DNA from: an uncultured Bacillota bacterium
GTDB taxonomy: Bacteria > Bacillota_I > Bacilli_A > RFN20 > CAG-288
Direction: 5' to 3'
Length of the DNA: 64,000 nt
Assembly: GCA_949284445.1 (NCBI GenBank)
Contig: CASDVP010000006.1
Span: 48,651-112,650, forward strand
Positions 34,890 to 64,000 of this stretch are shown piece after piece (within the stretch, counting starts at the first letter, position 1; every line of letters begins with the position of its first letter). The translations under genes were made by a program, and so were the position numbers. The notes under the pieces were generated by a model. The model worked only from the letters and a program-made list of their open reading frames with translations. It ran no database searches and was not told the DNA's origin.

Positions 34890-34894
34890 CGAAG

Positions 34895-35641: not shown

Positions 35642-35643
35642 TT

Positions 35644-39892: not shown

Positions 39893-39905
39893 GAGTTAAT
39901 CATTT

Positions 39906-43444: not shown

Positions 43445-43458
43445 TGAAAGCGTTTACA
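43445..43458 (+). promoter_or_regulatory. cre (CcpA/LacI-family) site in the glgCDA leader
   Basis: TGAAAGCGTTTACA matches TGWAANCGNTNWCA; lies between -10 TATAAT and SD GGAGG. Confidence 0.75.
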
Positions 43459-47632: not shown

Positions 47633-49558
47633 TTAAGCTAAGTTAGAATTTCTTTCCTCAGCAGCTGCTTCTCTTAATTTTAAGAATTCACGTTCGGTTT
47701 CATCATCGAAAGCAGTATTCATCTTTGGCTCTTCTTTAGGCTTCTTCTGCTCAGCTTCAGTTTTCTTTCTTTCAGCTTCAGCTTTCTTATTAGCACGATC
47801 AGTTTCGTACTTCTGTAATTCATCTTCAAAGACTAATTCTACTAACTTAGTAGGTTTACCGGCATCTTTGAGTTGATGATACTTTGCATTGTTCTTCTCA
47901 ACATGTCTACGTAAGTTTTCGATTTCTTCTTGATGGACTTGTTCTTCAGCCTCAGCTTGTTCTTGTTCGAGTCTAATTTCAGGATCAACCCATTCAGCAC
48001 CTTTTCTAATAGCGAGCTCTTTTTGGTCGCTAGTGATTGCTTGCTTATCTAATTTCGAGAAGCGCTCAACACCCATAAATAAGAAGATTAGACCGATCAA
48101 TAAGTAGCAGATAGATTCACCGCCGAAATAGATGAAGGTATTGGCAATTCTCCAGGTTTCAACGTTAGAAGAAATAGCAGGATTATTATTAATAAGGTTG
48201 ATAATAGCATTAGCGATACCAGGCATAGCAATCATGATAGAACCATAAACAGCCATTGAGAAACCATCAGTTCTGACACCATAGATAGCTTCTTGATGCT
48301 CTAAGACATCTGATAATAAAGCCATAGAGATATACATAGCAGGAACAGTACCGATAGATTTTAAGCAGAAAGCGGTGATAGAAATACCCCAAACAGCTGA
48401 AGTATTGTCGGCTAAAGGTAAGACTAAGAATCCTAAGCACCCCATTATGAAGGCTAAGAAACCACCGACTTTAATGCAGTTTGCTTTACCGAATTTTCTA
48501 GCTAATGGCCAAATGACTAACATACCTAAAGCAGTAGGAATAGCACCTACAGTATTGATAGTTCCAGCTAATTTGGTTTGGTTAGCACCTAAGAAAGCTT
48601 GGGAGAACCAAGTAGCATCATTATTTTTCAACATACCACCTAATTGATAGAGGAAGTAGAAGATGATAATCATCCACCAGAATTTATCACGTGTACAGAT
48701 CTTAATCTGTTGACTCATAGGAACCTTTTTGGTTTCTAATGCAACATTGTCAGAAGAGTTAGCAATCTTTAATTTTAGTTTTTCCTCAGTGATTCTTTCT
48801 CTAGTGAAATAATATTCTAATAAACAACCGATTACTTGAACACCGATTAAGATAGCCATTAAGATGACCCATTTGCTGTTTGCAGCACTTCTCGCAGCTT
48901 CATCAGCGAGTTGACCAGTTTCTGCACCAGCAGGGAGCAATCCTAAAGCATCAATAAAGAATGGTGCAACCATACCTGCAGCTCCAGACGCAACAATTTG
49001 AGCAGCATTTGAAGCAGTAGCTAATAAGGATCTCTTAGATCTATCACGTGTGGAAAGGTTGACTAAAGCAGAGTGAGATGTGTAATAGAACGGATAAGCT
49101 ACAGCGAAGTATAGGTTATAACCTAAAGCGATAAATACCAATGTTAACCAATTTGGATCTTGAGCTGTGGCTCCTTTAGGAAATGGAACTAAGAAGAGGA
49201 TTAAGAGAGCAATAGCCATTAATGGCATACCGATTAGAATGAATGGACGAGCTTTACCAGCGATTGATGGCTTTCTTTCGAATAATCTACCGACTAGTAA
49301 ATTACCAATGACGATGATGATGGCAGAAACTAATGGTAATAACCATGTGAATGTATAAGCCCATTCACCTAAACCTAAAACATTACGCCAATACTGACTT
49401 AAATAAGTGTTGACAACACTATTTGCAATAAGGGCGAATGCTGGACCGACTAAGTAGCCAAATGCAGCTTCTGGAACGAGTTTTACATTGGCAGACTTAA
49501 TCTTTGTAGAGAGCATAGGAGTTTCAAAGAAACTTTTTTTTGCGTCTGTTGTTTCCAT
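47633..49558 (-). CDS. GPH-family (MelB/UidB-like) MFS sugar:cation symporter with charged C-terminal extension
   Basis: About 12 TM helices, GKARPFIL, LVNLSTRD...RS, LLSDVLEHQE..YG.R.DG. Confidence 0.88.
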   Translation of the reverse strand: METTDAKKSFFETPMLSTKIKSANVKLVPEAAFGYLVGPAFALIANSVVNTYLSQYWRNVLGLGEWAYTFTWLLPLVSAIIIVIGNLLVGRLFERKPSIAGKARPFILIGMPLMAIALLILFLVPFPKGATAQDPNWLTLVFIALGYNLYFAVAYPFYYTSHSALVNLSTRDRSKRSLLATASNAAQIVASGAAGMVAPFFIDALGLLPAGAETGQLADEAARSAANSKWVILMAILIGVQVIGCLLEYYFTRERITEEKLKLKIANSSDNVALETKKVPMSQQIKICTRDKFWWMIIIFYFLYQLGGMLKNNDATWFSQAFLGANQTKLAGTINTVGAIPTALGMLVIWPLARKFGKANCIKVGGFLAFIMGCLGFLVLPLADNTSAVWGISITAFCLKSIGTVPAMYISMALLSDVLEHQEAIYGVRTDGFSMAVYGSIMIAMPGIANAIINLINNNPAISSNVETWRIANTFIYFGGESICYLLIGLIFLFMGVERFSKLDKQAITSDQKELAIRKGAEWVDPEIRLEQEQAEAEEQVHQEEIENLRRHVEKNNAKYHQLKDAGKPTKLVELVFEDELQKYETDRANKKAEAERKKTEAEQKKPKEEPKMNTAFDDETEREFLKLREAAAEERNSNLA

Positions 49559-49586
49559 ATAGATGTTTTCCTTTCAATTTGAGCTT

Positions 49587-49607
49587 CATAGCAAACATTA
49601 TGCTATG
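49587..49607. promoter_or_regulatory. 7-7-7 inverted repeat in the MFS leader
   Basis: CATAGCA-N7-TGCTATG just downstream of the predicted -10. Confidence 0.45.
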
Positions 49608-49614
49608 CACTTCT

Positions 49615-49671
49615 ATAATAGAATAGCGCTTACAAGGCGTAAATAGCAAATTGTTTTTCATAAGATATCAA
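49615..49671 (-). promoter_or_regulatory. MFS promoter: tandem TTG(A/C)TAT boxes, weak -35, cre-like site in the spacer, -10 TATTAT
   Basis: Minus strand TTGATAT (49671-65) and TTGCTAT (49649-43), 22 bp apart. TGTAAGCGCTATTC at 49634-21; TATTAT at 49620-15. Confidence 0.55.
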
Positions 49672-49719
49672 AAAATAATCTTTTTTTGTCAACGCGGCTT
49701 TTTGGAAATATCTTTATTT

Positions 49720-49733
49720 TGGAAACGATACCA
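49720..49733 (+). promoter_or_regulatory. cre-like site between the divergent MFS and GH3 operons
   Basis: TGGAAACGATACCA fits TGNAANCGNWNNCW. Confidence 0.5.
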
Positions 49734-49834
49734 AAGGTTATGAAACTTATAATCTAACAAAATAAAACAAATGTAATTCTTAATTCACATATTTTTTCGT
49801 CAATTGGTGAAAAATATATTAAAAATAGGCAATT

Positions 49835-49891
49835 TTGCAATCTTTAAAACTTGTTTTGCAATTTCAAGTGTTGTAAGGCTTTACATAAAAT
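49835..49891 (+). promoter_or_regulatory. GH3-operon promoter: two TTGCAAT boxes, weak -35, -10 TAAAAT
   Basis: TTGCAAT at 49835-41 and 49856-62 (21 bp period). TTCAAG-N17-TAAAAT, with the palindrome-like TGTAAGGCTTTACA (49872-85) in the spacer. Confidence 0.65.
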
Positions 49892-49968
49892 TTTAAAATG
49901 TTTACAGGGATGATTTTTATACGTTTTTTATGTATATAAAATCATCAAACAATTAACTGGAGGGGTTT

Positions 49969-51210
49969 ATGGACGAACAAGCTACAATCAAGCCTGAACC
50001 TAAAAAATCGCGTTTTAAGGCTTTGAAAGTTGTTTTGGCTGTCTTTTTACCGCTATTTTTTGTCATTTCAGTTGCTGTCGCTGTTTTATATGGCGGGGAA
50101 CTGATTGAAGAACCAACGGTAGAGTACGGCACTAAGGGACTAATCCGTTTAGAATCACCAAATTATCAACAATCATATTTCGTTGGTGATAAATTTTCTT
50201 TTGATAAAGATAAGAATCAGGTCTGGTTGGTCGCTAGAGATCCATCATTAGAGAATATCGTTAATAATACCGATATGCCTGGTGATGAGTATGGTTTCGT
50301 CATTCGCAAATTCTATAGTGAAGACGGAGTTTTGACCGCTAAAGAAGACATTGAAGCTAATGCATCTATCAAATCTATTTATGAAAAAGAAGAGGATTTG
50401 GCTTCTAAAAAAGAAGAAGCTACTTCTGAAAGCACTGCTGAAGAAGGAGCCACTGATGATGAAACCGCTTCTGATGAAAGCACAACAGAAGAAGTTAAAA
50501 AGTATTATTATGTCGATTCAGAATTCTATTTGAATGCTGAAGACATAACAATGGCTCCTAAAACCACTATTTGCTTAGCTAGTAAAAGATATCAAGATTT
50601 GACTCTTGAATTAGATACTGATGTTATCGATGGTTATATCGATGAGACTAAGTTATCTAATTCTGTCACTATTGAAGCTGAAAACTCTGATGTCTATCAA
50701 GATGATGTCTTGTTAACCAGAGAGCAATTGCAAACATTGCCAGATGGCAATAAACCTTTTTTGTCTAATTATGGTACTTCTACTGATGGTAAATCTTGTA
50801 GCGGTGGTGCTTGTTTAAGAAGCTTCAATAAAAATAATATGGCTGTTGATTTTGAGATCGTATCTTCTCAATCAATAACTGTTGAGTTGACTACATTGAT
50901 TTGCTTAAGACCTGATGCAGATTCTTTCACTAATTATTTTAAAGTTTCATTAAATGGTCAAGATATCAATGCTTTTGAAGGCATTGAAGTTCCTGAAGGA
51001 AGTGGTTACTATACACCTTATACAATGCCATCTGTTCAAATTGAATTGCAAAAAGGCATCAATCATTTAGTCTTTTCAAGTGGTTCACACGTTGGGCTTT
51101 CAGCTTCTCCTTGTAATTTAGATGCTATTAAGATTTCTACTCTTGATGAAGAACTTAAGGTCATCGGCGATAGCAATGCTATTGTCCTTAACGAGGAGGC
51201 AGGATTATGA
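49969..51210 (+). CDS. N-terminally anchored membrane protein with C-terminal CBM6/CBM35-like beta-sandwich
   Basis: Single N-terminal TM, acidic linker, then TIEAEN...SGGACL...VSLNG...IELQKGINHLVF...CNLDAIKI pattern. Confidence 0.65.
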   Translation: MDEQATIKPEPKKSRFKALKVVLAVFLPLFFVISVAVAVLYGGELIEEPTVEYGTKGLIRLESPNYQQSYFVGDKFSFDKDKNQVWLVARDPSLENIVNNTDMPGDEYGFVIRKFYSEDGVLTAKEDIEANASIKSIYEKEEDLASKKEEATSESTAEEGATDDETASDESTTEEVKKYYYVDSEFYLNAEDITMAPKTTICLASKRYQDLTLELDTDVIDGYIDETKLSNSVTIEAENSDVYQDDVLLTREQLQTLPDGNKPFLSNYGTSTDGKSCSGGACLRSFNKNNMAVDFEIVSSQSITVELTTLICLRPDADSFTNYFKVSLNGQDINAFEGIEVPEGSGYYTPYTMPSVQIELQKGINHLVFSSGSHVGLSASPCNLDAIKISTLDEELKVIGDSNAIVLNEEAGL

Positions 51211-51674
51211 GAGAACGAAAAATCAATTGGGTCAATAGAGCTTTTGGCTATTTAGCAGTTGCTACTACTGTTGCACAAGCTTGGATTTATACCTATGTGC
51301 CTAATGAACTGTTTAATTTACAAGTCTGTCTTTTATCTATTTTAGGTGTCGGTCTTTTCTGTGTTTTGATGTTATTTAAGAAGACTGCAGTTTTAGCTCC
51401 GATTGCCTTGATGTGTTGTGATTTTTTATGCGTTTGCGCATTTGCTAAAGCTGATGGTGTGATCGACTACTTTTCTACTGCCTTTTTCAGTGGCTTTTCC
51501 TTCCAAGCTTTCTTTAATTTAGACACCTTTGTTTGGCTCACGCTTTTACTATTTATCATCTCCTTTATTTTCGCATCTGTCGCTATGTATATTCCTCTTT
51601 TCAGAAAAAGTAAAGAAGAGAAGAATCATATGGCTAAAAAGACTGAATTAACTACTGGAGGAAATGCCAAATGA
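51207..51674 (+). CDS. uncharacterised 4-TM protein preceding GH3 (paralogue of 39461..39892)
   Basis: ATGA-coupled to both neighbours; four TM helices. Confidence 0.8.
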   Translation: MRERKINWVNRAFGYLAVATTVAQAWIYTYVPNELFNLQVCLLSILGVGLFCVLMLFKKTAVLAPIALMCCDFLCVCAFAKADGVIDYFSTAFFSGFSFQAFFNLDTFVWLTLLLFIISFIFASVAMYIPLFRKSKEEKNHMAKKTELTTGGNAK

Positions 51675-54600
51675 AAAGAAAAACAGCTTTAAGAATATCT
51701 AAGATTAGTTTTCATGTCACATTTGTTCTTTTCGCATTAGCTGCTACTGCTAGCCCGATGCTATTAGATTATTCGGGTATGATCAACACCGTATTTAATA
51801 TTCAAACTTCTACTGGTAGCGGTTCTGACGGAAACACCTATTTCGATACTGAATTTGAAACGATGGATGAAGTTAAGGAAGCTAGTAAACAAATCATTGA
51901 TGAAACCTTAAAAGAAGGCGCTGTCTTATTAAAGAATGATAACGAGGCTTTACCTTTAGCTAGTGAAGATACTGTCAATCTTTATGGCGCTGCTTCCTAC
52001 TGGTCAGTTGTCACTGGTATGGGTTCTTCAAGTTTTAAAGTTAATGGTGATCAGGACCCATTCGCCGATATCGTCACGTTAGAATCCGGCTTGACCAGTG
52101 CTGGTTTAAAAGTCAATGAAGATTTGAACACTTGGTATAAAGATAACGGTCTTAATTATTTAGGCGGCAGTGATCACTTCATCGGTTATGAAGACCAAGA
52201 AGTGCAAACAGTTGTTAAAGATGCTCCATGGAGCGCTCTTCCTTCCGCTAAAGAGAATGATGCTAAAGCTGGTATCATGGTTTTAGCAAGAAACTCTGGT
52301 GAAGCTGTCGACTTATATGCAGATATAACGATGGATGATGGTGCGACAAGAACTATTGTTAGCAAAAAAAATAATGGCAACCCTAACGGTTCTGTCGGAG
52401 ACGCTTTATCCCTCACTGATAATGAAAAAGATGTTCTTGCAAACATGAAGAAAATGAAGGATGAAGGAAAATTAGACAAGATTATTGTCTTGATGAATTG
52501 CGCCAGTCCTTTCCAAAGCGCTTTTGTTGATCAAGAAGAATATGGTATCGATGCTGCAATTTGGGTCGGAACTCTTGGTACCAATGGTGCTAATGCAGTC
52601 GGCAAATTATTGACTGGTAAATATAACTTCTCTGGTAGAACTGCTGATACCTTCTTTGCTGATAACAAATACAATCCTGTTTACTACAATTTTGGTTCTT
52701 ATGAATATGGAAATTCAAGCGCTTTAAAGAGCAATTATTTCGCTACTTTAGGCGAACAGAACCATAAATTCTATGTCGCTTATCAGGAAGGTATTTATAA
52801 CGGTTACAAATATACTGAAACTCGTTATGAAGACGTCTTAACTAATCGCAATAATGCAGGAAGCTTTGATTATGAAGCTGCTGTTTCTTATCCTTTCGGC
52901 TATGGCTTGAGCTATTCTGAATTCTCCTATTCCAATTTCAAGGTCACTGAAAATACTGAAGAAGACACTTATACTTTGACTGTCGATGTCACTAATAATT
53001 CTAAAGTCGATGGCAAAGAAGTCGTTCAGGCTTATATCCAAAAGCCATATACTGCTAAAGATATCGAAAACGGTGTTGAAAAATCAGCTGTTGAATTAGC
53101 TGGCTTCACCAAAGTTGATGTCAAAGCAGGTGAAACTGTTCCTGCTACTATTGAAATTAAAGGAAAATACTTAGCTGCTTACGATGCTAATGGTGAAAAG
53201 ACTTATGTCATCGGTTCTAGTGATAAAGATGATGAATATCTGTTCACTGTTGCAAAAGACGCCCATGATGCTGAAAATAACTTCTTGCAATACAAGGCTG
53301 ATAAAGGCGTTGATGTCGATTTAGAAAATATCACCACCAATGATAAGCGCGGTGAAGGTGATAAAGAATTGGTTTGGGGTAAGCACATCGACTATAGTGC
53401 TACTAAATATTCCACAAACGAATATATCGAACAACAGAATGAGAATTTTGAAGCTAGATATGATGGAGAAGAAGCTAATTATGGCGTTTCTTCTATCACC
53501 AATCAATTCGATGATACTGATTATCAAAAGGTTGGTCTTTTCTCTGACAGCGAAGAATCTCAACCTTATATGTCTAGAAACAACTGGACTGGCACTTATG
53601 GCAAAGTCATTAAATTGACCGCTAGTGCTGATTTAGCTGCTGCTCAAGCTGTTCCTGCAGTTGAACAAGATAATATTTCTTATCCTACTTATGATGAAAT
53701 CGGCTTCTATGAAGGCGATGATATGTTCGATGAGATCAAACTCATCTACTTACGCGGTAAAGATTTCAACGATCCTGATTGGGATACTTTGCTCAATCGC
53801 ATCTCTTGGGAAGAAACCTGCTATATCTTACAAGATGCTCTCCGTTACACTCGCGGTATCGATTCGATCGCTGCTCCTATGACTTCTCAACAGAATGGTG
53901 CTATCTCACCTGTTCACTCTCGTAATGATGGCGCTATTCCGAGTCAAAACGCTTTCCGCGGTTTTGCAGAATTGAGAAACGATGGTGTCAATACCAAACC
54001 TACTATCTTTGCTAACAACGGCATCGTTGCTGCTACTTATAACGTCGATCTCATCAGAAGGATCGGTAAACAGACTGGTGAAGAAGCTATCTGGGCTGGT
54101 TATAACGGCATCTATGGCTTAGGTGTCAACATCCACAGAGGCTCTTACTGTGGTAGAACCTTCGAATATTATTCCGAAGATGGATTCTTGACTGGTGTTG
54201 CTGCTGGTTATGAAGCTGCTGGCTTACATGACATGGGCGTATTTGTTTTAGCTAAACACGCTGTTTTAAACGACCAAGAGACTCACAGAGCTGGTCTTAA
54301 TGTTTGGGCTAATGAACAATCCATCCGTGAGATCTACTGCCGTGCTCTTGAAGTCGCTATCGATTTAGACAGAGAATTAGCGTTTGATGAAAATGGTAAT
54401 AGAACTCATATGCCGATGTTAGGTGTTATGACTGGTATGAACCGTTTAGGCGCTGTTTGGACTGGTGGTCAAGGTTTCTTAAACACTGTTTTAAGGGCTG
54501 AATTCGGTATGACTAGTTATGCTATCTCCGACTATAACTCTTCTCGTCGTTATATGTCTCCTATCCAAGGTGTCTTATATGGTAATGATTTGCCTGACGG

Positions 54601-54925
54601 AAACACTGGTAGTTGGTCTGGTGGTAACGATTATGATGGTAACAGCGCTCAATTTGAGGATTATGCAACTGGTTATGGTAAGTTAGCTTGGGCGATGAGA
54701 GATTGTGTTAAGAATGTTCTTTATACAGTCGTCAACTCCAATGCTATGAACGGTATCACTGGAGATTCTTCTTTCACCACCATCACTCCTCTTTGGGAAA
54801 AATTAGTCCCAGTTGTCACTCGTGTTTTATTCACTTTAGTTGTTTGGTCTACGGTCATGTTCGGTGCTATCTACATCTATGATTGTGCAAAACAGATTCA
54901 GGAATCCTTGAGTTTGAGAAAATGA
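51671..54925 (+). CDS. membrane-anchored GH3 glycosidase with permuted domain order
   Basis: EGAVLLKNDNEALPL, YQEGIYNGYKY, PFGYGLSYSEF, GRTFEYYSED, KHAVLND, AISD nucleophile. TM helices at both termini. Confidence 0.93.
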   Translation: MKRKTALRISKISFHVTFVLFALAATASPMLLDYSGMINTVFNIQTSTGSGSDGNTYFDTEFETMDEVKEASKQIIDETLKEGAVLLKNDNEALPLASEDTVNLYGAASYWSVVTGMGSSSFKVNGDQDPFADIVTLESGLTSAGLKVNEDLNTWYKDNGLNYLGGSDHFIGYEDQEVQTVVKDAPWSALPSAKENDAKAGIMVLARNSGEAVDLYADITMDDGATRTIVSKKNNGNPNGSVGDALSLTDNEKDVLANMKKMKDEGKLDKIIVLMNCASPFQSAFVDQEEYGIDAAIWVGTLGTNGANAVGKLLTGKYNFSGRTADTFFADNKYNPVYYNFGSYEYGNSSALKSNYFATLGEQNHKFYVAYQEGIYNGYKYTETRYEDVLTNRNNAGSFDYEAAVSYPFGYGLSYSEFSYSNFKVTENTEEDTYTLTVDVTNNSKVDGKEVVQAYIQKPYTAKDIENGVEKSAVELAGFTKVDVKAGETVPATIEIKGKYLAAYDANGEKTYVIGSSDKDDEYLFTVAKDAHDAENNFLQYKADKGVDVDLENITTNDKRGEGDKELVWGKHIDYSATKYSTNEYIEQQNENFEARYDGEEANYGVSSITNQFDDTDYQKVGLFSDSEESQPYMSRNNWTGTYGKVIKLTASADLAAAQAVPAVEQDNISYPTYDEIGFYEGDDMFDEIKLIYLRGKDFNDPDWDTLLNRISWEETCYILQDALRYTRGIDSIAAPMTSQQNGAISPVHSRNDGAIPSQNAFRGFAELRNDGVNTKPTIFANNGIVAATYNVDLIRRIGKQTGEEAIWAGYNGIYGLGVNIHRGSYCGRTFEYYSEDGFLTGVAAGYEAAGLHDMGVFVLAKHAVLNDQETHRAGLNVWANEQSIREIYCRALEVAIDLDRELAFDENGNRTHMPMLGVMTGMNRLGAVWTGGQGFLNTVLRAEFGMTSYAISDYNSSRRYMSPIQGVLYGNDLPDGNTGSWSGGNDYDGNSAQFEDYATGYGKLAWAMRDCVKNVLYTVVNSNAMNGITGDSSFTTITPLWEKLVPVVTRVLFTLVVWSTVMFGAIYIYDCAKQIQESLSLRK

Positions 54926-54936
54926 GAGGTGATAAA

Positions 54937-57900
54937 ATGAAAAACAAGAAAAAAATTGTTGGCATCTCTCTTTTATCTTTGATGTTTATGTCACCTATTC
55001 TTTCTAGCTGTACTCAAGAATCATCATCCTCTGTCGCTGTGCATGAATGTGTCTTTTATCCAGTAGAGGCTGTCGCTTCTACTTGTAAGACACAAGGACA
55101 TAAAGCCTATGAGGAATGTCCGTATTGCCGCAAGAAGATGATCGATGGTCAAGTCGTGACTGATGAAGAAGTTTTATTGCCATTAGATCCTAAAAATCAC
55201 GATTCGAATTCCTTGACTACTCATCCAGGAACTCCAGCCACATGTTTGACCGATGGCACTAAAGAATATTCTTATTGTGCTGATTGCGGCTCTTATGTTA
55301 TCGATGGTGAAAACTATACTGAAGAAAATTATCAGGAAGCTTTAGTCATTCCTAAAGAAACTGCTGAACATGAGTTAGTTCATCATGATGAAGTAGCTTC
55401 GACTTGTATACCTGGTAAAAAAGCTTATGATCAATGTTCGGTCTGTCATAAATATTTTATTGATGGTGCTGAAGTTCAAGAAAGTGATTTGATCATCCCA
55501 GCATCTGGTGAACATAATTTTAATACTTATGGTGTCTGCGAGAATGGCTGTGGAACTTATAAATGGGATAGTCATGTGTTTGATACTTCTAACTCTGTTC
55601 CTCTAGTGCCTTCTTCTGGAGAAGGATGGGTTGATGCCGATAAAGATGAAAAAGCTGCAATGATCGCTTCCACCCATGCTAATAAAATGACATTCCATAC
55701 ACAGAGAAGTTCTACTGATGGCTGTACAGTTGTTTACAGAGACGAAGAAGCGATTGATATAACTCTTTCTAAAGGTGCGGCGAATCAATGCACTTTCACT
55801 AGATTTGCGGTCGGTGAAGGAAGTACTGCCTATACTGGTCAATTCTATTTGACATTTGAAATCACTATTGATCGTGATATGTTAGTCGATAGATTAGGCG
55901 CTATGATCACTGATTATGATGCTAATGTCAAAGCTGAAACTTTAGGTGAATATGATCAATCGAATCTTTTAGGCGCTGATAGTGGAAATAAAGGAAGTGT
56001 TGAGAAGAATCCAGAAAGAATTCTTAAAGCAAAAACCACTTATCGCTTCATCTATAAGATGGAAACTACTAACACCAGCCCTTCACCAGACATGGTCGAT
56101 AAACAAGAACAGATGGTACAAATCTTTATCGGCGGTGGGGATGCTACTTATACTTTAAGCAATCTTCATGTCATCACTCTTCCTGAAGCTGAAAAGACAG
56201 GTAAAGTCACTTCTTCATTGCTCTATTTTGGTGAAACTGATTTAGTTGAAAATGAGAAAGATATCAAAGTCACTGATTTGACATTAAATAAGACTTATTT
56301 GACAATGCAAGTCGGTGATGAAGAAACTTTAGTCGCTACTGTTTTACCTGATATTGCTACAGATAAAACTGTCACTTGGTCAAGTGATCATCCTGAAATT
56401 GTTGATGTTGATGACAATGGTAAATTGACAGCTAAAACTACTGGGACTGCGAAGATCACTGCTACTTGTGGTGGATTAACAGCCACTTGTGATGTTGAGG
56501 TCTTAGATATGGTTGTTCCGGTAACCGGAGTTGAATTAGATAAAGAGACTTTAGAATTAACCGCTGGCGATGATGCAAGTCAATTAGTTGCTACTATCAC
56601 TCCTGATAATGCTTCTAATAAAACTTTGACTTGGTCCAGCAGTGCGCCTGAAGTAGCTAGTGTTTCAGACACTGGTTTAGTGACTCCTTTAACTGAAGGT
56701 CAAACAACTATCACAGTTAAAACAAATGATGGCTTGTTTGAAGATACCTGTGTTGTCACTGTCAGTGCTCCGACTGAGAAACATTATTACACCTATTTAG
56801 AAGAAGATTTCTTTGATCCTGCTAATTGGGATGCTAATGGTGAAGGAGCTAGAGATGACTCTATCATCGATAGTGATTTCAAACTCTCATTCACTTCTAG
56901 CACTGCTAGTAGATTCGATTTATTCTATGGTCCTAATCATGCTAATTTTGCTGAAAATAGTGATAATATTGATGGTACTAAAAAAGATCAACAAGCTATT
57001 TTTGAACAGATTTACAATCAAACCTATTCATTTGATATGGATGTTGAAACTGATGGTGAAGTCAATTTGATGATCTTTGGTACTTCTGGTGCTAATGGTC
57101 CTACAAATACGAGTTCCGCCTCACTATATTTGCATATCAAATCTGATGGTAGTATGTCTTTAGATCAATCAGCACCTACCTCTAACAATGATTTCAAAGA
57201 TCATTTCACCTGTGCTGATACTGGTTTTAAATTAAACGAGACTAACAAGTTATCATTTAAAGTCAATCGTGTTGATATCGACACCTTGACTCTTCAAGTC
57301 TTTGTGAACGATAAACAGGTTAAATTCGAAGGTGACGATTGGACACAAGGAAGTCGTGGAACCTATTCTGTTGATGAAAATGGCACTTATACATCTACTT
57401 ACGTCAAAGATAGCGGATATGGTCCTCGCTTTGGTGTTTATCCTTCGGCTGACACCACTTTCAAGATTTCTTCTCTCGCCATTGATCCTGAACCTGAGCA
57501 AATCACTGAACCTGATCCAGAGCCTGTAGAAAAACATTATAATCTTTATAATGGAAAAGATTTCTTCGATCCAGCTAACTGGTATGGAACTACTCAAGAA
57601 CAAATCGCTCGTGATGATTCTATCATCGATGAAGATCATAATTTAAGTTTTACAGATGCGACTCCTAGCAGAACCGATTTCTTCTACTTTAAGGATGATG
57701 GATGCCATTTTGGTGACAAAAATGCTGATAATAAATGGAATGGTTACACTGATTATTATGGCATAACCTATACCTTCTCATTAGGCATCGAATCGACTGG
57801 TGCTTTCGAGATGACTGCTATCGCTAATAAGTCGTGGGTGACCCCTAGTACGACTGGTGGCTTCGGATTTGTTTATCACTTTGAAGATAATAAAATCACT

Positions 57901-58236
57901 TTAACTTGTCATCATAATAGTGATAACTATACTTTTACTGCTAATACTGATGCTTTTAAATATAATCAAGTCAACCAAATCTCTTTAAAAGTGACTAGAG
58001 TAGATTCGGACACATTAACCTTACAGTTGCTCGTCAATGATGCAGTTGTTGAATTCGATAAAAGTGGTGATTATCCTGGCAGTTCCTATTCTTTCACTAT
58101 GAGCGATGACTTTGTTTTGAGTTTTGATAAATATCTCGCTAACAACGGATATGGTCAACGCTTAGGAATCTTTCCTGATGCTGGTTCAGTAGTGACTATT
58201 TCTTCACTAGCTATCGATCCAGCACCGGCCAATTAA
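54937..58236 (+). CDS. large surface lipoprotein: Cys/His repeats, two Big_2 Ig domains, two tandem about 240-aa C-terminal domains
   Basis: Start ATG 54937 after GAGGTG; lipobox LSSC; Ig domains with TVTWSS..P motifs at 56260-56766. Confidence 0.88.
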   Translation: MKNKKKIVGISLLSLMFMSPILSSCTQESSSSVAVHECVFYPVEAVASTCKTQGHKAYEECPYCRKKMIDGQVVTDEEVLLPLDPKNHDSNSLTTHPGTPATCLTDGTKEYSYCADCGSYVIDGENYTEENYQEALVIPKETAEHELVHHDEVASTCIPGKKAYDQCSVCHKYFIDGAEVQESDLIIPASGEHNFNTYGVCENGCGTYKWDSHVFDTSNSVPLVPSSGEGWVDADKDEKAAMIASTHANKMTFHTQRSSTDGCTVVYRDEEAIDITLSKGAANQCTFTRFAVGEGSTAYTGQFYLTFEITIDRDMLVDRLGAMITDYDANVKAETLGEYDQSNLLGADSGNKGSVEKNPERILKAKTTYRFIYKMETTNTSPSPDMVDKQEQMVQIFIGGGDATYTLSNLHVITLPEAEKTGKVTSSLLYFGETDLVENEKDIKVTDLTLNKTYLTMQVGDEETLVATVLPDIATDKTVTWSSDHPEIVDVDDNGKLTAKTTGTAKITATCGGLTATCDVEVLDMVVPVTGVELDKETLELTAGDDASQLVATITPDNASNKTLTWSSSAPEVASVSDTGLVTPLTEGQTTITVKTNDGLFEDTCVVTVSAPTEKHYYTYLEEDFFDPANWDANGEGARDDSIIDSDFKLSFTSSTASRFDLFYGPNHANFAENSDNIDGTKKDQQAIFEQIYNQTYSFDMDVETDGEVNLMIFGTSGANGPTNTSSASLYLHIKSDGSMSLDQSAPTSNNDFKDHFTCADTGFKLNETNKLSFKVNRVDIDTLTLQVFVNDKQVKFEGDDWTQGSRGTYSVDENGTYTSTYVKDSGYGPRFGVYPSADTTFKISSLAIDPEPEQITEPDPEPVEKHYNLYNGKDFFDPANWYGTTQEQIARDDSIIDEDHNLSFTDATPSRTDFFYFKDDGCHFGDKNADNKWNGYTDYYGITYTFSLGIESTGAFEMTAIANKSWVTPSTTGGFGFVYHFEDNKITLTCHHNSDNYTFTANTDAFKYNQVNQISLKVTRVDSDTLTLQLLVNDAVVEFDKSGDYPGSSYSFTMSDDFVLSFDKYLANNGYGQRLGIFPDAGSVVTISSLAIDPAPAN
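55042..55554 (+). repeat. three Cys/His-rich protein repeats
   Basis: (A/S)TC-x2-3-G-x2-(A/E)Y-x2-CxxC-x4-IDG...H occurs three times: ASTCKTQGHKAYEECPYC, PATCLTDGTKEYSYCADC, ASTCIPGKKAYDQCSVC. Confidence 0.85.
56776..58233 (+). repeat. tandem duplicated domain in the lipoprotein
   Basis: Both copies begin EKHY...DFFDPANW...ARDDSIID...LSF and end YG.R.G.(Y/F)P......ISSLAIDP. Copy 1 is 56776-about 57495, copy 2 is 57529-58233. Confidence 0.9.
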
Positions 58237-58365: not shown

Positions 58366-59391
58366 TTATCTTTGGACTCTTCCAGAAGCATCACCATTCA
58401 TCAATGTTTCAACTTCTTCAGTGCTGACGTGATTGACATCGCCAGGGATAGTTTGTTTTAAAGCAGAAGCTGCAACCGCAAATTCCAAGGCTTTCTTTTC
58501 GTCGCCATTGTAAGCTAACAAACCATGGATGAGACCACCTGCGAAAGAATCGCCTCCACCGACGCGATCGACAAGACGGATTTGGTACTCACGAGAGTGA
58601 TAGAATTCTTTTCCATCATAGATGAGAGCTGACCAACCGTTATCAGAAGCAGAGTAAGATTCTCTTAGAGAAGTAGCCATATATTTGAAACCAAATTTAT
58701 CTTTGAGTTTCATAAACACATCTTGATAACCGCTAAGATTGAGTTGACCTTTAGTGACATCGCTCTTCTCAGCTTTAAAGCCTAAGCATTTTTCACAATC
58801 TTCTTCATTACCGATCAAGACATCGACATATGGCATTAAAGATGTCATGACTTGGATAGCTTTTTCACTAGTCCACAATTTTTTACGGAAGTTTAAATCG
58901 CAAGAAACTGTCAAGCCATGCTTTTTAGCAGCTTGGCAAGCTAAGATAGTTAATTTTTCAGCTTTCTCAGAGATAGCTGGAGTGATGCCAGTGAAATGAA
59001 ACCAATCTTTGCCTTCAAAGATTTTATCGAAATCGAATTCATCAGCTTCAGCTAAAGCGATAGCAGAATTAGAACGATCATAGATGACTTTTGAAGGACG
59101 CATAGCATCACCAGTCTCTAAATAATAGATACCGATTCTGTCACCACCTCTGACGATATAGTCGGTATTGACACCGAATTCTCTTAAAGAGTTGACAGCG
59201 CTTTGACCGATATCATTCTTAGGAAGCTTAGTGACAAAATAAGTTTTATGACCATAGTTGGATAAAGATAACGCGACGTTAGCTTCACCACCACCGTAGC
59301 AAGCGTCGAAACTATCAGATTGAACAAAACGTAAGAATCCATGAGTGGAAAGACGAAGCATGATTTCACCCATAGTGACAATTTTAGCCAT
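58366..59391 (-). CDS. kdgK: 2-keto-3-deoxygluconate kinase (PfkB)
   Basis: GEIMLRLS, GGGEANVA, DLNFRKKLW, DRVGGGDSFAGG. Confidence 0.95.
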   Translation of the reverse strand: MAKIVTMGEIMLRLSTHGFLRFVQSDSFDACYGGGEANVALSLSNYGHKTYFVTKLPKNDIGQSAVNSLREFGVNTDYIVRGGDRIGIYYLETGDAMRPSKVIYDRSNSAIALAEADEFDFDKIFEGKDWFHFTGITPAISEKAEKLTILACQAAKKHGLTVSCDLNFRKKLWTSEKAIQVMTSLMPYVDVLIGNEEDCEKCLGFKAEKSDVTKGQLNLSGYQDVFMKLKDKFGFKYMATSLRESYSASDNGWSALIYDGKEFYHSREYQIRLVDRVGGGDSFAGGLIHGLLAYNGDEKKALEFAVAASALKQTIPGDVNHVSTEEVETLMNGDASGRVQR

Positions 59392-59419
59392 AATATATAC
59401 CTCTTTTTCTTAAAAAATA

Positions 59420-60022
59420 TTATTTACCTTCATGAATCTGCAAGCATTTAGCGACGATTTCCTCATGGCTACCTTTAGTCATCCAGGAGCCACCGACAGC
59501 GATGATCTTATCGAATGCTAAGTATTCTTGATAAGTCTCTTCGTTGATACCACCAGTCGGCAAGAATTTGATATCGGGGAAGACGGCTGCTAGGCTCTTG
59601 ATAGCTTTTAAGCCACCATAGATGCTAGCAGGGAAGAATTTGACGATCTTATGTCCTAAGCTGATAGCATGTATGATCTCAGTCGGAGTCGCAATACCAG
59701 GAAGATAAGGAATGTTATGAGCTTTACAAACCAAATCGACATCATCAGCAAAGCCAGGTGAAACGATGAATTTAGCACCGGCTTTGATGGCATCTTCACA
59801 TTGTTTAGCGTTGATGACAGTGCCAGCACCGATGAGAGCATCCGGATATAATTCGATAGATTTTTTGATAGCTTCAGCAGCACAAGCAGTGCGGAAAGTG
59901 ATTTCAGCAATAGGTAATTTTCCTTCGACTAAACCACCGATTTTATCTTCGACTTCATCGACAGAGTTTAAGACGACGACAGGAACGACTTTTAATTCGT
60001 GAATTTTTTCAATGATATCCAT
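59420..60022 (-). CDS. eda: KDPG/KHG aldolase
   Basis: AEITFRT, GAGTV, FIVSPG, PGIATPTEI, KFFPA, PTGGI. Confidence 0.95.
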   Translation of the reverse strand: MDIIEKIHELKVVPVVVLNSVDEVEDKIGGLVEGKLPIAEITFRTACAAEAIKKSIELYPDALIGAGTVINAKQCEDAIKAGAKFIVSPGFADDVDLVCKAHNIPYLPGIATPTEIIHAISLGHKIVKFFPASIYGGLKAIKSLAAVFPDIKFLPTGGINEETYQEYLAFDKIIAVGGSWMTKGSHEEIVAKCLQIHEGK

Positions 60023-60040
60023 AAGTTATAACCTTCTATA

Positions 60041-61462
60041 TTAATCTTTAGTGAAGAATTCGACAGCGTTATCGAAGCTGATGTCCTTGACCATCTTTTC
60101 TAAGAACTTTTCATTCAAAGGATATTCACCGTCTTCGACAGTTTTGCCGATCAAGTTGCATAATAGACGTCTGAAGTAATCGTGTCTAGCATAGCTTAAG
60201 AAACTTCTTGAATCAGTTAACATACCGACGAAATGCGGTAATAAACTGTAGTCAGCTAAAGTTCTCATCTGTTTTTCCATGCCATCGCGATGATCGTTGA
60301 ACCACCAAGCAGCACCGAATTGAATCTTGCCTTTATATGGGGCTTTTTGGAATGAACCGCACATCGCTAACAAAGGTTCATAGTCTGCTAAATCCAGAGT
60401 GTAGATGATGGTCTTATATAAAGCATCTTCTTTTTCTAAATCATCTAAGCAATGTGTCAAATCATGGATGAGATTTGTATCGGAGATAGCATCATAACCA
60501 GAATCAGCACCTAAAGTCTCATAAGCTTTAGAATTGAGATTTCTTAAGGCTTTGAGATGATATTGCATGACAAAATGGTATTTAGAGCAGGCTTTTCCGA
60601 AGAAATGTAAGATCTCAGCATAATATTTTGCTAAATCGCTCTGAGTCAATTCTTCATGGTTCAAAGCTTTTTTGAAGATGACATCGACTTCATCGATGCT
60701 CGCTCTTTGATAGAGGAAGTCTTCGAATGAAACATCGAATGCACGGCAACCATTTTCAGCAAAATATGCTAATCTCTCATCTAAGGCTTCTTCTAAAGCT
60801 CTGATATCTTTGATCTCTTTATGAGTGACTTCTCCTAAAGCTTTGATGACGTCGGCATAGTTAGGAGCATAGATTTTAATGAAGTTATCAGCTCTGAAAG
60901 CAGGATTGACGACCACTTTGAAACTTTTATCTTGCTTTAATAACTGATGATAGTGTAGGTCAGAGAGAGGATCATCAGTCGTATACAAAGTGTGGACATT
61001 AGCTTTAGTCAGAAGCTTTCTGACTGAAAGTGATTTTAATTTCTCGTTTAAGAGGTCGTAAATCCTTTCAGCGTTTTCACTGGTCAATGGTTCATCGATA
61101 TCGAAGTATTGCTTCAATTCCAAATGAGACCAATGATAGAGAGGGTTTAAGAAAGCGTTTTGTAAGGTATCAGCCCATTTCAAGAACTTTTCTTTTTTAT
61201 CTTTATCTCCAGTGATATAAGCTTCATCGACACCGTGAGCGCGCATCAAACGCCATTTGTAATGGTCGCCGAAAGCTTTGCCGTTCTTTTTTTCGACTAA
61301 CCATAAATCAGTGATGGAATCATAAGTTCTATCAGCGTAGATCTCCTCGATTGGAAGGTGGCAGTGGAAGTCGAATATCGGGAGATGTTCAGCTACTCCG
61401 TGATAGAGTTTTTTAGCGACTTCATTTTGAAGCATGAAGTCTTGATCATTAAAGTTTTTCAT
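60041..61462 (-). CDS. uxaC: glucuronate isomerase
   Basis: DFHCHL, DHYKWRLMRAHG, NPLYHWSHLEL, GAAWWFND, GMLTDSRSFLSY.RHDYFRR. Confidence 0.97.
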   Translation of the reverse strand: MKNFNDQDFMLQNEVAKKLYHGVAEHLPIFDFHCHLPIEEIYADRTYDSITDLWLVEKKNGKAFGDHYKWRLMRAHGVDEAYITGDKDKKEKFLKWADTLQNAFLNPLYHWSHLELKQYFDIDEPLTSENAERIYDLLNEKLKSLSVRKLLTKANVHTLYTTDDPLSDLHYHQLLKQDKSFKVVVNPAFRADNFIKIYAPNYADVIKALGEVTHKEIKDIRALEEALDERLAYFAENGCRAFDVSFEDFLYQRASIDEVDVIFKKALNHEELTQSDLAKYYAEILHFFGKACSKYHFVMQYHLKALRNLNSKAYETLGADSGYDAISDTNLIHDLTHCLDDLEKEDALYKTIIYTLDLADYEPLLAMCGSFQKAPYKGKIQFGAAWWFNDHRDGMEKQMRTLADYSLLPHFVGMLTDSRSFLSYARHDYFRRLLCNLIGKTVEDGEYPLNEKFLEKMVKDISFDNAVEFFTKD

Positions 61463-61473
61463 TTTAGTTTTGA

Positions 61474-62334
61474 TTAGACTCCAGCATAGCTAGAGAAACC
61501 GCCATCGATAGGTAAGACGACACCGGTGATGAAGGAACTTGCCTTGTCAGAAATCAAGAAGAGAGTAGCACCGATGAGTTCATCCGGTTCACCGAATCTG
61601 CCCATCGGAGTAGCGTTGATGATCTTACCAGTACGAGCGGTAGGAGTTCCATCGGGATTGAATAATAAGCTCTTGTTTTGAGCGGTTGCTAAGAAACCAG
61701 GAGCGATAGCGTTGACACGGATGTTAACTTTAGAGAAGTGAACAGCTAACCATTTGGTGAAGTTGCTGACAGCAGCTTTAGCACCTGAATAAGCAGGAAT
61801 CTTGGTCAAAGGAGTGAAAGCATTCATAGAAGAGATGTTTAAGATAGAGCAACCTTTTCTACCTAACATATCTTTAGCGAAGACTTGGCTAGGCAAAAGA
61901 GTACCTAAGAAGTTAAGATTGAAAACGAAAGAGACACCGCTAGGATCGAGATTGAAGAAAGTCTTTAATTCCGGATCATCGATATCACCGACTTCATAAT
62001 ATTCTTTATCAGTGTTGGCACGAGCGTTATTACCACCAGCACCATTGATGAGAATATCGACTTTGCCTAAATCATGATTGATATCCTCGTGGGCTTTCTT
62101 TAAGCTTTCTAAGTCTAAAACATTAGCAGCATAGCCATAAGCGACTCCGCCATCAGCACGGATCTCTTCGACGACTTTCATCGCGGATTCAAGCTTCAAA
62201 TCAAGAACAGCGACTTTAGCACCAGCAGCAGCGATAGCTTTGCTTAAAGCACCGCAGATAACACCGCCAGCACCTGTGATAGCAACGACTTTATCAGTGA
62301 GTCTAACACCGATAGGTAAATCTTCATACTTCAT
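61474..62334 (-). CDS. uxuB: SDR-type D-mannonate oxidoreductase (fructuronate reductase)
   Basis: TGAGGVIC, NGAGGN, PLTKIPAYSGAKAAVSNFT.WLAVH; located between uxuA and uxaC, like the B. subtilis SDR-type UxuB. Confidence 0.82.
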   Translation of the reverse strand: MKYEDLPIGVRLTDKVVAITGAGGVICGALSKAIAAAGAKVAVLDLKLESAMKVVEEIRADGGVAYGYAANVLDLESLKKAHEDINHDLGKVDILINGAGGNNARANTDKEYYEVGDIDDPELKTFFNLDPSGVSFVFNLNFLGTLLPSQVFAKDMLGRKGCSILNISSMNAFTPLTKIPAYSGAKAAVSNFTKWLAVHFSKVNIRVNAIAPGFLATAQNKSLLFNPDGTPTARTGKIINATPMGRFGEPDELIGATLFLISDKASSFITGVVLPIDGGFSSYAGV

Positions 62335-63386
62335 TATTTATTTTCTCCTTTTTTATATTCAGCCATTTCGAATAATCCATTTATATAACATGCACCTAAG
62401 GCGCGATCATATAATCCATAACCTGGTTTAGCATCTTCACCGAAGATGTTTCTGCCGTGATCGGGTCTGACATAACCATCGAAGCCGTTTTCAACTAATG
62501 CTTCAACGATCTTAGCGATATTTAAGGACCCCATCTTGCTCAAGTGACCAGCTTCGACGAAGGAATCGTGGTCGCCTAAGTATTTGACGTTTCTCAAGTG
62601 TGCGAAGTGAATGCGACCTTCTTTAGCATATTTAGCAGCCATGTGGACTAGATCATTCTTTCTAGAGGCACCGAAGGAACCTGTGCAAAGAGTCAAACCA
62701 TTGCGTTTGCTAGGAACAGCTTTGAAGAGTCTATCCAAGTCTTCTTCGTTAGAGATGATACGCGGCAATGAGAAGACATCCCACGGCGGATCATCAGGAT
62801 GGATAGCCATATTGACATCGCATCTTTCACATACAGGAATAATTCTTTCTAAGAAATAGACGAGATTTTCAAATAATTGTTGATGTGATACGTTTTTATA
62901 TTCAGCTAATAAAGCCTGCAATTCATCTTCGGTATAACTTTCATCCCATCCAGGTAAATGCAAATGTTTAGGATCGACCTTTAAAAAGTCTTCATAGATA
63001 TAAGCTAATGAATTAGAACCATCGGGATTGACATAGTGCATAGTTGTTCTCAGCCAATCGAACACTGGCATGAAGTTATAACATACGCATTTGACGCCGT
63101 ATTTAGCCACCAATTCAATATTCTTAGCATAATTAGCTATCAATTCATCACGGTTAGATTTACCCAATTTGATGTCTTCGGAAACAGGAATGGATTCGAT
63201 GACTTCCATTTCTAATCCTTTAGCGGCGCATAATTCTTTTTGTCTCTTCAATGATTCTTCCTTCCATACTTGACCGGGTTTAGCATCATAAAGAGCGGTG
63301 ACAACACCTGTGATTCCTGGAATTTCACGGATGTAGTCTAATGGTATGCTGTCAGTTTCACCATACCAACGAAACGTTAGTTTCAT
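62334..63386 (-). CDS. uxuA: mannonate dehydratase
   Basis: MKLTFRWYG, CYNFMP, LPGW, HPDDPPW, HFAHLRN, RPDHG, GYGLYDRALG. Confidence 0.97.
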   Translation of the reverse strand: MKLTFRWYGETDSIPLDYIREIPGITGVVTALYDAKPGQVWKEESLKRQKELCAAKGLEMEVIESIPVSEDIKLGKSNRDELIANYAKNIELVAKYGVKCVCYNFMPVFDWLRTTMHYVNPDGSNSLAYIYEDFLKVDPKHLHLPGWDESYTEDELQALLAEYKNVSHQQLFENLVYFLERIIPVCERCDVNMAIHPDDPPWDVFSLPRIISNEEDLDRLFKAVPSKRNGLTLCTGSFGASRKNDLVHMAAKYAKEGRIHFAHLRNVKYLGDHDSFVEAGHLSKMGSLNIAKIVEALVENGFDGYVRPDHGRNIFGEDAKPGYGLYDRALGACYINGLFEMAEYKKGENK

Positions 63387-63422: not shown

Positions 63423-63482
63423 TATCATTATAAATGATACGCTTTCTAATTAAATTGCAATTTTTTCTTGTTTTGGTTGCAA
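63423..63482 (-). promoter_or_regulatory. uxuA promoter: two TTGCAA boxes, weak -35, cre/LacI-like site, palindrome over the -10
   Basis: TTGCAA at 63477-82 and 63455-60 (22 bp period). AGAAAGCGTATCA in the spacer; -10 TATAAT (63432-27) lies inside TATCATT-ATA-AATGATA (63423-39). Confidence 0.65.
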
Positions 63483-63526
63483 TTTAACTAGACCATCTTT
63501 ATACTATCTTTGTTATTATACTATAT

Positions 63527-64000
63527 ATGTTTAATTTTAATTACAAAAGTATTGATTTTGCTCACAAACTAGATAACACCACCACACCTAGCGAAAACTT
63601 TAAACGTCACATGCATTATTTTAATGAAGTTATCTTTTTTGTTTCTGGTGATGTCGATTATCATGTTGAATCAGAGAGCCGCAAACTATCACCTGGTGAT
63701 GTCATCATCGTCCCTAGCGGAAAGTTTCATTTCGCTGTCTGTAATCTGAACCAGACTTATGAAAGATACGTTTTAAAATTTCCGGATAAAATCTTACCTG
63801 ACTTTTTGGTGGAATTCATCAAAAACAGCCCTTGTTTTTATTCCGATATGATGAAATATCATTTGGATTTTTCAACTTTAGATGATTTCTTTAATCAATT
63901 TAAAACCGAAGAAGAAATATATGCTTTATTCACCAGTGAACTGATCAAGTTTTTGATTTATCTATCTAAAGAATGTCAAGAATCTTTCACGACTACTAGA
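63527..64000 (+). CDS. AraC-family transcriptional regulator, N-terminal cupin domain (partial; not in the ORF track)
   Basis: Open frame of 158 codons to the window end: HMHYFNEVIFFVSGDVDYHVE...LSPGDVIIVPSGKFH...YERYVL. Divergent from uxuA. The HTH is outside the window. Confidence 0.85.
   Translation, partial: MFNFNYKSIDFAHKLDNTTTPSENFKRHMHYFNEVIFFVSGDVDYHVESESRKLSPGDVIIVPSGKFHFAVCNLNQTYERYVLKFPDKILPDFLVEFIKNSPCFYSDMMKYHLDFSTLDDFFNQFKTEEEIYALFTSELIKFLIYLSKECQESFTTTR

Follow-up and report, generated by a model that had tools for sequence, protein, structure and literature searches.

The control of glucuronate catabolism is examined here in a 64,000-nucleotide stretch of DNA from an uncultured Bacillota bacterium (GTDB lineage Bacteria; Bacillota_I; Bacilli_A; RFN20; CAG-288), taken from contig CASDVP010000006.1 of GenBank assembly GCA_949284445.1 (positions 48,651 to 112,650, forward strand). 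This whole stretch, with a GC content of 36.5%, is called the window. Pfam matches and open reading frames place the following genes at its right-hand end: a GPH-family (MFS_2) permease of 641 amino acids on the minus strand (47633..49558); a GH3 operon on the plus strand (49969..58236), encoding a 413-residue and a 155-residue protein without a family, a 1084-residue GH3 protein and a 1117-residue Big_2 protein; the glucuronate catabolic operon uxuA, uxuB (SDR), uxaC, kdgA and kdgK on the minus strand (58366..63386); and araC on the plus strand (63527..64000), the first 158 codons of a gene for an AraC-family regulator with an N-terminal cupin sensor domain, cut by the window end. The closest relative in the genome collection is L001, a metagenome-assembled genome labelled "uncultured Bacilli bacterium", whose GH3 protein is 92% identical. 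In L001 the start of a GH2 gene lies directly after araC, and a GH2 gene whose best NCBIfam match is a beta-glucuronidase model follows araC in most orthologous loci; by synteny, such a gene very probably lies just beyond the end of the window. The element of interest is a pair of TTGCAAT boxes about 21 base pairs (bp) apart, found in the promoters of the GH3 and uxuA operons. A sequence-only reading of the window had proposed that these two promoters and that of the permease share one architecture, that the AraC-family protein activates all three, and that catabolite repression is layered on top.

In the GH3-operon promoter, a distal TTGCAAT at 49835..49841 is followed 21 bp further on by a proximal TTGCAAT at 49856..49862, both on the plus strand. 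In the uxuA promoter, the proximal TTGCAAT lies at 63454..63460 on the minus strand (core 63455-60), and the distal box at 63477..63483, to which no strand is assigned, is by sequence, weight matrix and promoter scan also the -35 hexamer (TTGCAA) of araC. Read on the plus strand, this uxuA/araC region has TTGCAAT at 63455-61 and 63477-83, a period of 22 bp. All strings named in the sequence-only reading were found at the positions it gave. A position weight matrix (PWM) trained solely on sites from other genomes scores the GH3 distal and proximal boxes at 13.1 and 12.7 bits and the uxuA proximal box at 16.1 bits. Over the whole window it puts the GH3 pair first (25.9 bits) and the uxuA/araC pair second (25.2 bits); the best unrelated pair reaches 14.8 bits. 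The latter, a minus-strand TTGCAAT and TGGCAT at 51030-51056 (51030/51051), lies inside the 413-residue gene, has no TTGCAA at the matching place in L001 and was set aside as probably a chance occurrence. The GH3 and uxuA promoters have no extended similarity outside the boxes, and a promoter duplication was rejected.

Could such boxes be chance matches in AT-rich DNA, or else reused -35 or UP-like promoter elements? The palindromic TTGCAA occurs 12 times in the window, five times in intergenic DNA, and four of these five copies are the GH3 and uxuA pairs. The spaced pattern TTGCAA-N15/16-TTGCAA has two matches in the 64 kb against a mean of 0.05 in dinucleotide shuffles of the whole window, none of 100 such shuffles giving two. 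When the intergenic DNA alone was shuffled (4.2 kb, 27.8% GC), 10 of 3000 trials gave a pair and none gave two. Exact pairs thus almost never arise in shuffles, which speaks against chance, and since the intergenic shuffles so rarely contain a pair and never two, the GH3 and uxuA/araC pairs are not equally common in random AT-rich intergenic DNA and stand beyond chance.

The pairs recur in related loci, which were fetched by protein identity with AraC orthologues 43-73% identical to the fragment in the window and which are all metagenome assemblies. In these loci araC is mostly divergent from uxuA, uxuB or an MFS_2-uxuA operon, and in L019 and L021 it belongs to a uxu cluster on its own strand, either within it or at its end. 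The pattern WTGCAA-N15/16-TTGCAAT adjoins araC in all 11 lineages with the upstream region available (L005, L007, L008, L011, L013, L015, L017, L021, L022, L023 and L024), and the sequence around the repeats in these uxuA (or MFS_2-uxuA)/araC regions has diverged, with little else kept. The GH3 operon has the same gene order in L001, L002, L003 and L008, and its promoter repeat is kept in each of them, the proximal box reading TTGCCAT in L001. L002 (48% GC) has a GntR-family regulator gene, oxidoreductases and a GGDEF protein as neighbours of the operon and L003 (28.5% GC) has trkH/trkA, so that in these two the operon lies in unrelated neighbourhoods and is unlinked to araC; in L008 it follows kdgK. 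Over about 190 kb of other loci, the exact pattern derived from the window was matched seven times once redundant copies were removed. Every match is intergenic and lies a short way upstream of a uxu, GH3 or Big_2 gene or, in one case (L021 15555), of an uncharacterised open reading frame. An unbiased 6-mer count over 24 intergenic regions from outside the window puts TGCAAT first, with 67 occurrences against 7.7 expected and presence in 24/24 regions, rivalled only by the Shine-Dalgarno sequence. TTGCAA itself is 20-fold denser in these regions than in the rest of the same loci.

One of these loci has a further feature at the same promoter. In L002, in the region 5742-6570, a GntR/FCD-family gene stands directly upstream of the boxed GH3 operon, and the GntR-operator-like palindrome GTAATTAC lies about 30 nucleotides upstream of the TTGCAAT boxes; gene and palindrome may form a second, local layer of control.

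The boxes hold a constant place relative to predicted promoter elements, with spacing counted from the end of the 6-nucleotide core. In the GH3 promoter the proximal core is followed after 24 nucleotides by TAAAAT (49886..49891, plus strand), and in the uxuA promoter after 22 nucleotides by TATAAT (63427..63432, minus strand); the hexamers at the -35 position are weak, TTCAAG and ATTTAA respectively. Relative to these predicted hexamers, coordinates and spacing agree with the earlier statement that half-site boxes stand just upstream of a weak -35, the proximal one 22-24 nucleotides from the -10. The TATAAT of the uxuA promoter is invariant in L001, L005, L007, L008 and L011 and lies exactly 22 nucleotides from the core in these five and the window, with unrelated spacers between. 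In all 24 promoters oriented to an operon, the proximal core, 22-24 nucleotides and a -10-like hexamer follow one another, and the hexamer at the -35 position is never near consensus. With the -10 set at -12 to -7, the proximal core falls at about -42 to -35 and the distal one at about -63 to -57. These distances bear on the idea of a reused -35. TTGCAA does agree with the -35 consensus at four of six positions and one copy lies 17 nucleotides from a -10, but the proximal box is too far from the -10 and a second copy always lies two helical turns upstream.

The promoter of the permease does not share this architecture fully. Its predicted -10, TATTAT (49620->49615), lies 23 nucleotides from the core of a weak candidate proximal half-site, TTGCTAT (49643..49649, minus strand; 9.5 bits), the hexamer at the -35 position is TTTACG, and a consensus promoter scan reports TTTACG-17-TATTAT. 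The claimed distal box TTGATAT (49665..49671, minus strand) scores 1.4 bits and is probably not a site. Together they make a pair of period 22 and 10.9 bits, a score that coding-region pairs also reach and that 303 of 5000 shuffles of the 260 nucleotides on the permease side (6%) equal; at this promoter the pair is within chance expectation. In L001 the proximal half-site is kept and the distal box is changed to TTAACAT, and the permease of L011, 62% identical to that of the window, has no boxes upstream (1.3 bits). With the pair at chance level and its distal box not conserved, the permease promoter was rejected as a full member of the regulon in this genome. MFS_2 genes with strong boxes in L013 and L021 were likewise set aside as support for the permease of the window, as they belong to a different MFS_2 subfamily (26% identity). 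The common architecture claimed for three promoters therefore stands for GH3 and uxuA and falls for the permease, which is at best weakly tied to the regulon through one half-site. The broader proposal that the GH3 operon and the permease belong with glucuronate catabolism is supported by L027, where a permease 52% identical to that of the window over its full length lies behind a 25.1-bit box pair and a protein 36% identical to the product of the first GH3-operon gene lies behind a 23.6-bit pair.

Which regulator would read these boxes? A separate test set was built by a metagenome scan with an alignment of AraC orthologues; a pair was counted where it scored 18.8 bits or more and lay no further than 450 nucleotides upstream of araC. 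Of the 39 AraC relatives that have upstream sequence and an identity of 33% or higher, 36 show such a pair, against 4 of the 15 relatives at 29% or lower. The better-scoring orientation reads away from araC, toward the divergent catabolic operon, in 31 of 34 distinct best sites, and the period is 21, 22 and 23 bp in 7, 24 and 3 of the 34 independent best sites. Nearly all other high-scoring pairs in the test loci lie upstream of GH2, MFS_2, Big_2, GH3 or GH3-operon-like genes, for example GH2 in L035, L037 and L046, a Big_2 protein in L047 and GH3 in L025. The boxed loci span 26-48% GC, and conservation of the pairs over this range again argues against chance. By the shuffles, the cross-genome matches, the 6-mer count and this test set, the explanation by chance matches or reused -35 elements is largely refuted, and we give it next to no credence.

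The operator might also be real and serve another transcription factor encoded elsewhere, with araC merely one of its co-regulated targets. The proximal box is a 10-bp palindrome (AATTGCAATT) that would also suit a symmetric dimer at each box, and L002 and L003 have boxes without araC on the contig, L002 with a GntR/FCD gene beside the operon. Against this, AraC of the present subfamily is the only regulator consistently adjacent, TetR and GntR neighbours being sporadic in the relatives; the presence of the motif tracks AraC identity (36/39 versus 4/15); and the two-turn direct-repeat geometry is a hallmark of AraC-family dimers. Another factor is for these reasons an improbable reader of the boxes. 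In the window, Pfam found no TetR, GntR or LacI gene at 47.6-64 kb, and Rfam at permissive E-values found no riboswitch or leader RNA at 49400-50100, where its matches were sub-threshold and due to chance (a CRISPR repeat model, E 0.047, and a snoRNA). The case for pairing this regulator with this operator is standard comparative genomics, here unusually complete, and gives strong backing to the proposal that the AraC protein encoded at 63527 controls the uxuA and GH3 operons via direct repeats of about 21 bp.

By its domains and predicted fold, the protein encoded at 63527 is a bona fide AraC/XylS-family member. The fragment in the window matches PF02311 AraC_binding at 33.3 bits (cut-off 21.1) and PF07883 Cupin_2 at 34.6 bits (cut-off 27.2). 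The collinear gene of L001 matches PF00165 (53 bits) and PF12833 (51.5 bits), that is, a double helix-turn-helix (HTH), and full-length orthologues of 258-270 amino acids all have HTH_18/HTH_AraC with a conserved HTH region, so the araC of the window almost certainly encodes a double HTH domain beyond the window end. Orthologue P0001, which shares 73% identity with the fragment in the window, was modelled with AlphaFold (pLDDT 86), and the top Foldseek matches of the model are ToxT, CsvR, Rns and CuxR at full length and the sensor domains of BgaR and AraC (TMt 0.6-0.69); the structural alignments show 13-18% identity.

The sensor domain also carries the cupin metal motifs HxHx3Ex6G (H28, H30, E34, G41) and Gx5PxGx2H (G57, P63, G65, H68), encoded at 63527-63730. 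Across 12 orthologues, the most distant at 43% identity, H28, H30, E34, G41, G65 and H68 never vary and G57 hardly does, and this conservation hints at a metal-dependent sensor, perhaps for the carboxylate of a uronate.

Taken together, WTGCAA-N15/16-TTGCAAT (period 21-22 bp) very probably serves as operator for the AraC/XylS-family protein encoded at 63527, which would act as a class II activator. A dimer would contact one face of the DNA at both half-sites, which lie two helical turns apart. The proximal half-site abuts the expected -35 position, where the sequence has no good -35, and from there the regulator would most likely recruit RNA polymerase, as in class II activation; this mode is favoured because the core positions match those of araI1-I2, RhaS, XylS and predicted Firmicutes AraC-family activator sites. 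The inducer may be glucuronate, a glucuronide or a pathway intermediate. In the window the predicted regulon comprises the uxuA-uxuB-uxaC-kdgA-kdgK operon and the GH3 operon, to which synteny would add araC itself and the GH2 beta-glucuronidase-like gene past the window end. For the claim that AraC activates all three promoters, comparative genomics thus speaks for uxuA and GH3 and not for the permease, with binding and activation deduced from site position and co-occurrence.

The same two boxes would serve both directions at the divergent promoters, as an upstream activator site for uxuA and as an overlap with the -35 of araC. The promoter scan reports TTGCAA-17-TATACT for araC, with its predicted -10 at 63500..63505 on the plus strand. 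The uxuA-distal box coincides with the araC -35 in the window and likewise in L001, L005, L007, L008 and L013, and the AraC-family regulator therefore probably controls its own synthesis.

The araC start region has its own peculiarity. The ATG lacks a Shine-Dalgarno sequence (tatctttgttattatactatatATG, window 63506-63529) and a second TATACT lies 4 nucleotides upstream of it, so the araC mRNA leader may be very short or absent. A Shine-Dalgarno sequence is present before araC in the more distant orthologues L013, L015 and L017.

The placement of a box exactly on the araC -35 (in the window, L001, L005, L007, L008 and L013), usually a repressing position, opens another reading, in which the adjacent AraC protein binds a real operator and is mainly a repressor, or a dual regulator working with DNA looping. 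At least three boxes are present in several loci; those of L015 and L016 form two clusters about 125 bp apart, recalling the araO2-araI loop, and in L015 one box abuts the -10. At the catabolic promoters, however, the boxes lie wholly upstream of a -35 position without a good -35 in 24 of 24 cases, which is the pattern of an activator, and cupin-type AraC-family sugar regulators are typically activators. We consider repression as the main mode unlikely, if somewhat less so than binding by another factor, and favour class II activation.

The L015 arrangement is notable in detail. Two clusters of three in-phase boxes lie at 2514-2565 and 2662-2715, the same in L016, each with a cre-like element (see below) between its first two boxes and with one box abutting TATAAT. 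These clusters may represent a form of the operator suited to looping or repression.

Several points weigh against an activator-operator assignment of this kind. The araC of the window ends at residue 158, before the DNA-binding domain. The araC of L001 has a +1 frameshift, an extra T in a T-run (L001 21950-21965), leaving open reading frames of 72 and 238 amino acids; this is either an assembly error, or a pseudogene and the sign of a dispensable regulator. The boxes of L002 and L003, on contigs that as examined have no araC, count here as well. The palindromic core hides the orientation of the half-sites at uxuA/araC (25.2 versus 24.5 bits on the two strands); the direct-repeat orientation is backed by the 3' T of TGCAAT and by the 31 of 34 sites that face the operon. 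The training sites of the PWM were hand-picked, and its validation used loci unseen in training. Finally, the -10 elements were predicted in DNA rich in A and T, and for GH3 the consensus scan favours a different promoter, TTGTAA(49871)-17-TAAAAT(49894-99). TAAAAT at 49886-91 was kept as the GH3 -10 solely because a box-to--10 distance of 22-24 nucleotides recurs in 24 promoters; either promoter may be the real one.

Catabolite repression had been proposed through a cre/LacI-like site in the spacer of each promoter. We compared the spacer elements by eye with a catabolite-responsive element (cre) reference for CcpA/HPr-Ser-P, the 14-nucleotide pseudo-palindrome TGWAANCGNTNWCA with a central CG and 11 specified positions, which is expected within a promoter or a little downstream of it. 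The element in the -35/spacer region of the permease promoter, TGTAAGCGCTATTC (49621..49634, minus strand), agrees at 9/11 positions and is kept in L001 and, as TGAAAGCGCTATTC, in L011, where the boxes are absent; it is a credible CcpA site. The pseudo-palindrome in the GH3 spacer, TGTAAGGCTTTACA (49872..49885, plus strand), also agrees at 9/11 and has a central GC rather than CG, so that it fails the strict pattern. Comparable pseudo-palindromes occur at varying positions at the GH3 promoters of L001, L002, L003 and L008, and this non-canonical element can be called suggestive. The uxuA spacer element AGAAAGCGTATCAT (63447->63434, minus strand) agrees at 6/11 positions and is not conserved in orthologues. 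A strict pattern scan found no cre in the three promoter spacers; the sole strict cre in the region, at 49720-33, lies between the permease and GH3 promoters in a fast-evolving middle part and is absent from L001. The proposal of a cre in every spacer thus holds loosely: it is plausible for the permease promoter, non-canonical for GH3, with its GC centre, and fails for uxuA.

Further cre-like sequences were seen in the window and its relatives. An identical cre-matching 14-mer, TGGAAACGATACCA, occurs at 24870-24883 and 49720-49733, and a perfect palindromic cre, TGAAAGCGTTTACA, at 43445-43458 overlaps the TTG start of glgC, which opens the glgC-glgD-glgA glycogen operon. Three relatives (L001 22655-22700, L005 6000-6045, L011 10800-10830) have one isolated TTGCAA box between araC and GH2, a region whose counterpart here falls beyond the end of the window. 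The box overlaps a near-perfect cre (TTGCAATCGCTTACA), and TAAAAT follows 23 nucleotides later. The overlap suggests that activator and CcpA compete at the GH2 glucuronidase promoter.

Elsewhere in the window, a second operon at 39461-42986 encodes a 143-residue protein and a 1026-residue GH3 protein 34% identical to the GH3 of the regulon. The PWM scan found no TTGCAA boxes upstream of it, and it is apparently outside the regulon. Both large GH3 proteins (51671-54925 and 39906-42986) have a domain order permuted relative to typical GH3 enzymes, with Pfam placing the GH3 C-terminal and Fn3-like domains before the GH3 N-terminal catalytic domain. In addition, Pfam matches to Wadjet JetA, DUF4194 (JetB-like) and an SMC/JetC-like ATPase at 33417-39111 look like a Wadjet anti-plasmid defence locus.

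The predicted arrangement has well-known counterparts. The half-sites bound by AraC, RhaS and XylS are direct repeats spaced by about 21 bp, and the one nearer the promoter overlaps the -35. The system of E. coli AraC at araI1-araI2/pBAD (and of RhaS at rhaBAD) is alike in joining a cupin sensor/dimerisation domain to a double-HTH domain, in the two direct half-sites about 21 bp apart with the proximal one at the (here predicted) -35 position of a promoter without a good -35, and in a regulator gene divergent from its catabolic operon with the operator over its own promoter. It is unlike the present case in its half-site, which here has a palindromic TTGCAA core, in protein sequence (13-18% identity) and in its setting, which here is a sugar acid/glucuronide pathway in uncultured low-GC Bacilli; binding is here a prediction. 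XylS, at the Pm promoter of the Pseudomonas putida TOL plasmid, recognises two copies of TGCA-N6-GGNTA in direct repeat, spaced by about 21 bp, of which the proximal copy overlaps the -35. The TGCA core and geometry of that site resemble the present motif, whereas here no GGNTA-like B-box is visible and the flanks are merely A/T-rich; XylS moreover has benzoates as effectors and another host.

Hexuronate and glucuronide genes are classically under repressors with palindromic operators, namely UxuR/ExuR of the GntR family, GusR/UidR of the TetR family and ExuR/KdgR of B. subtilis of the LacI family. GusR/UidR, UxuR/ExuR and KdgR share their targets with the present system (beta-glucuronidase (GUS), a glucuronide transporter, and uxuAB/uxaC/kdgKA) and differ from it in that positive control through direct repeats upstream of the -35 position is predicted here. 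GusR is discussed in PMC9881133. Gloux et al. 2016 (PMC4732671) describe human gut Firmicutes metagenomes in which an AraC-family gene (AFTR) lies near those for the C7D2 glucuronide transporter and GUS, propose a functional link from this co-localisation and include a Eubacterium eligens plasmid among the examples. An AraC-family regulator beside a GPH-type glucuronide transporter and a beta-glucuronidase is a likeness to our locus in gene context; the passages on AraC in that paper describe no binding motif, operator or regulon. In Caldicellulosiruptor bescii (PMC8579813), AraC-family "tandem repeats with large spacers" upstream of mapped promoter elements were read as activator sites, and uxuAB was assigned to the LacI-type XynR and not to an AraC regulator; the kind of inference, the geometry and the position of the sites are alike, and the regulators, motifs and pathways differ. 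Literature searches turned up no earlier account of an operator or regulon belonging to an AraC regulator that governs uxu or GUS genes.

The repeat thus gives an AraC-family regulator, one present in many metagenome assemblies of uncultured Bacilli from the gut, a concrete operator and regulon that can be tested. The sugar regulon is of an ordinary type, of which this is a new and well-supported example. Tandem half-sites of the AraC type at the -35 are textbook, and because the mechanism itself is familiar, the value lies in annotation and in an experimental handle rather than in a new principle. The GH3 operon, whose first two proteins lack a family, gains a context, as its expression is predicted to be coordinated with glucuronate catabolism and with a GH2 glucuronidase-like enzyme. 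The beta-glucuronidases of gut bacteria reactivate drugs, hormones and bilirubin that had been glucuronidated, and their regulation has, to our knowledge, been characterised for TetR-type GusR repressors. A wider picture, tentative and for us somewhat short of an even chance, is that a new AraC subfamily, perhaps with a metal-binding cupin sensor, is the positive master switch for GH2, glucuronate catabolism and the GH3/Big_2 glycan-harvesting operon in a widespread clade of uncultured gut Bacilli. If so, a metal-mediated recognition of the uronate carboxylate would be suggested, and GUS expression in this clade would be under the control of an activator, unlike the paradigm of the TetR-type GusR/UidR repressor.

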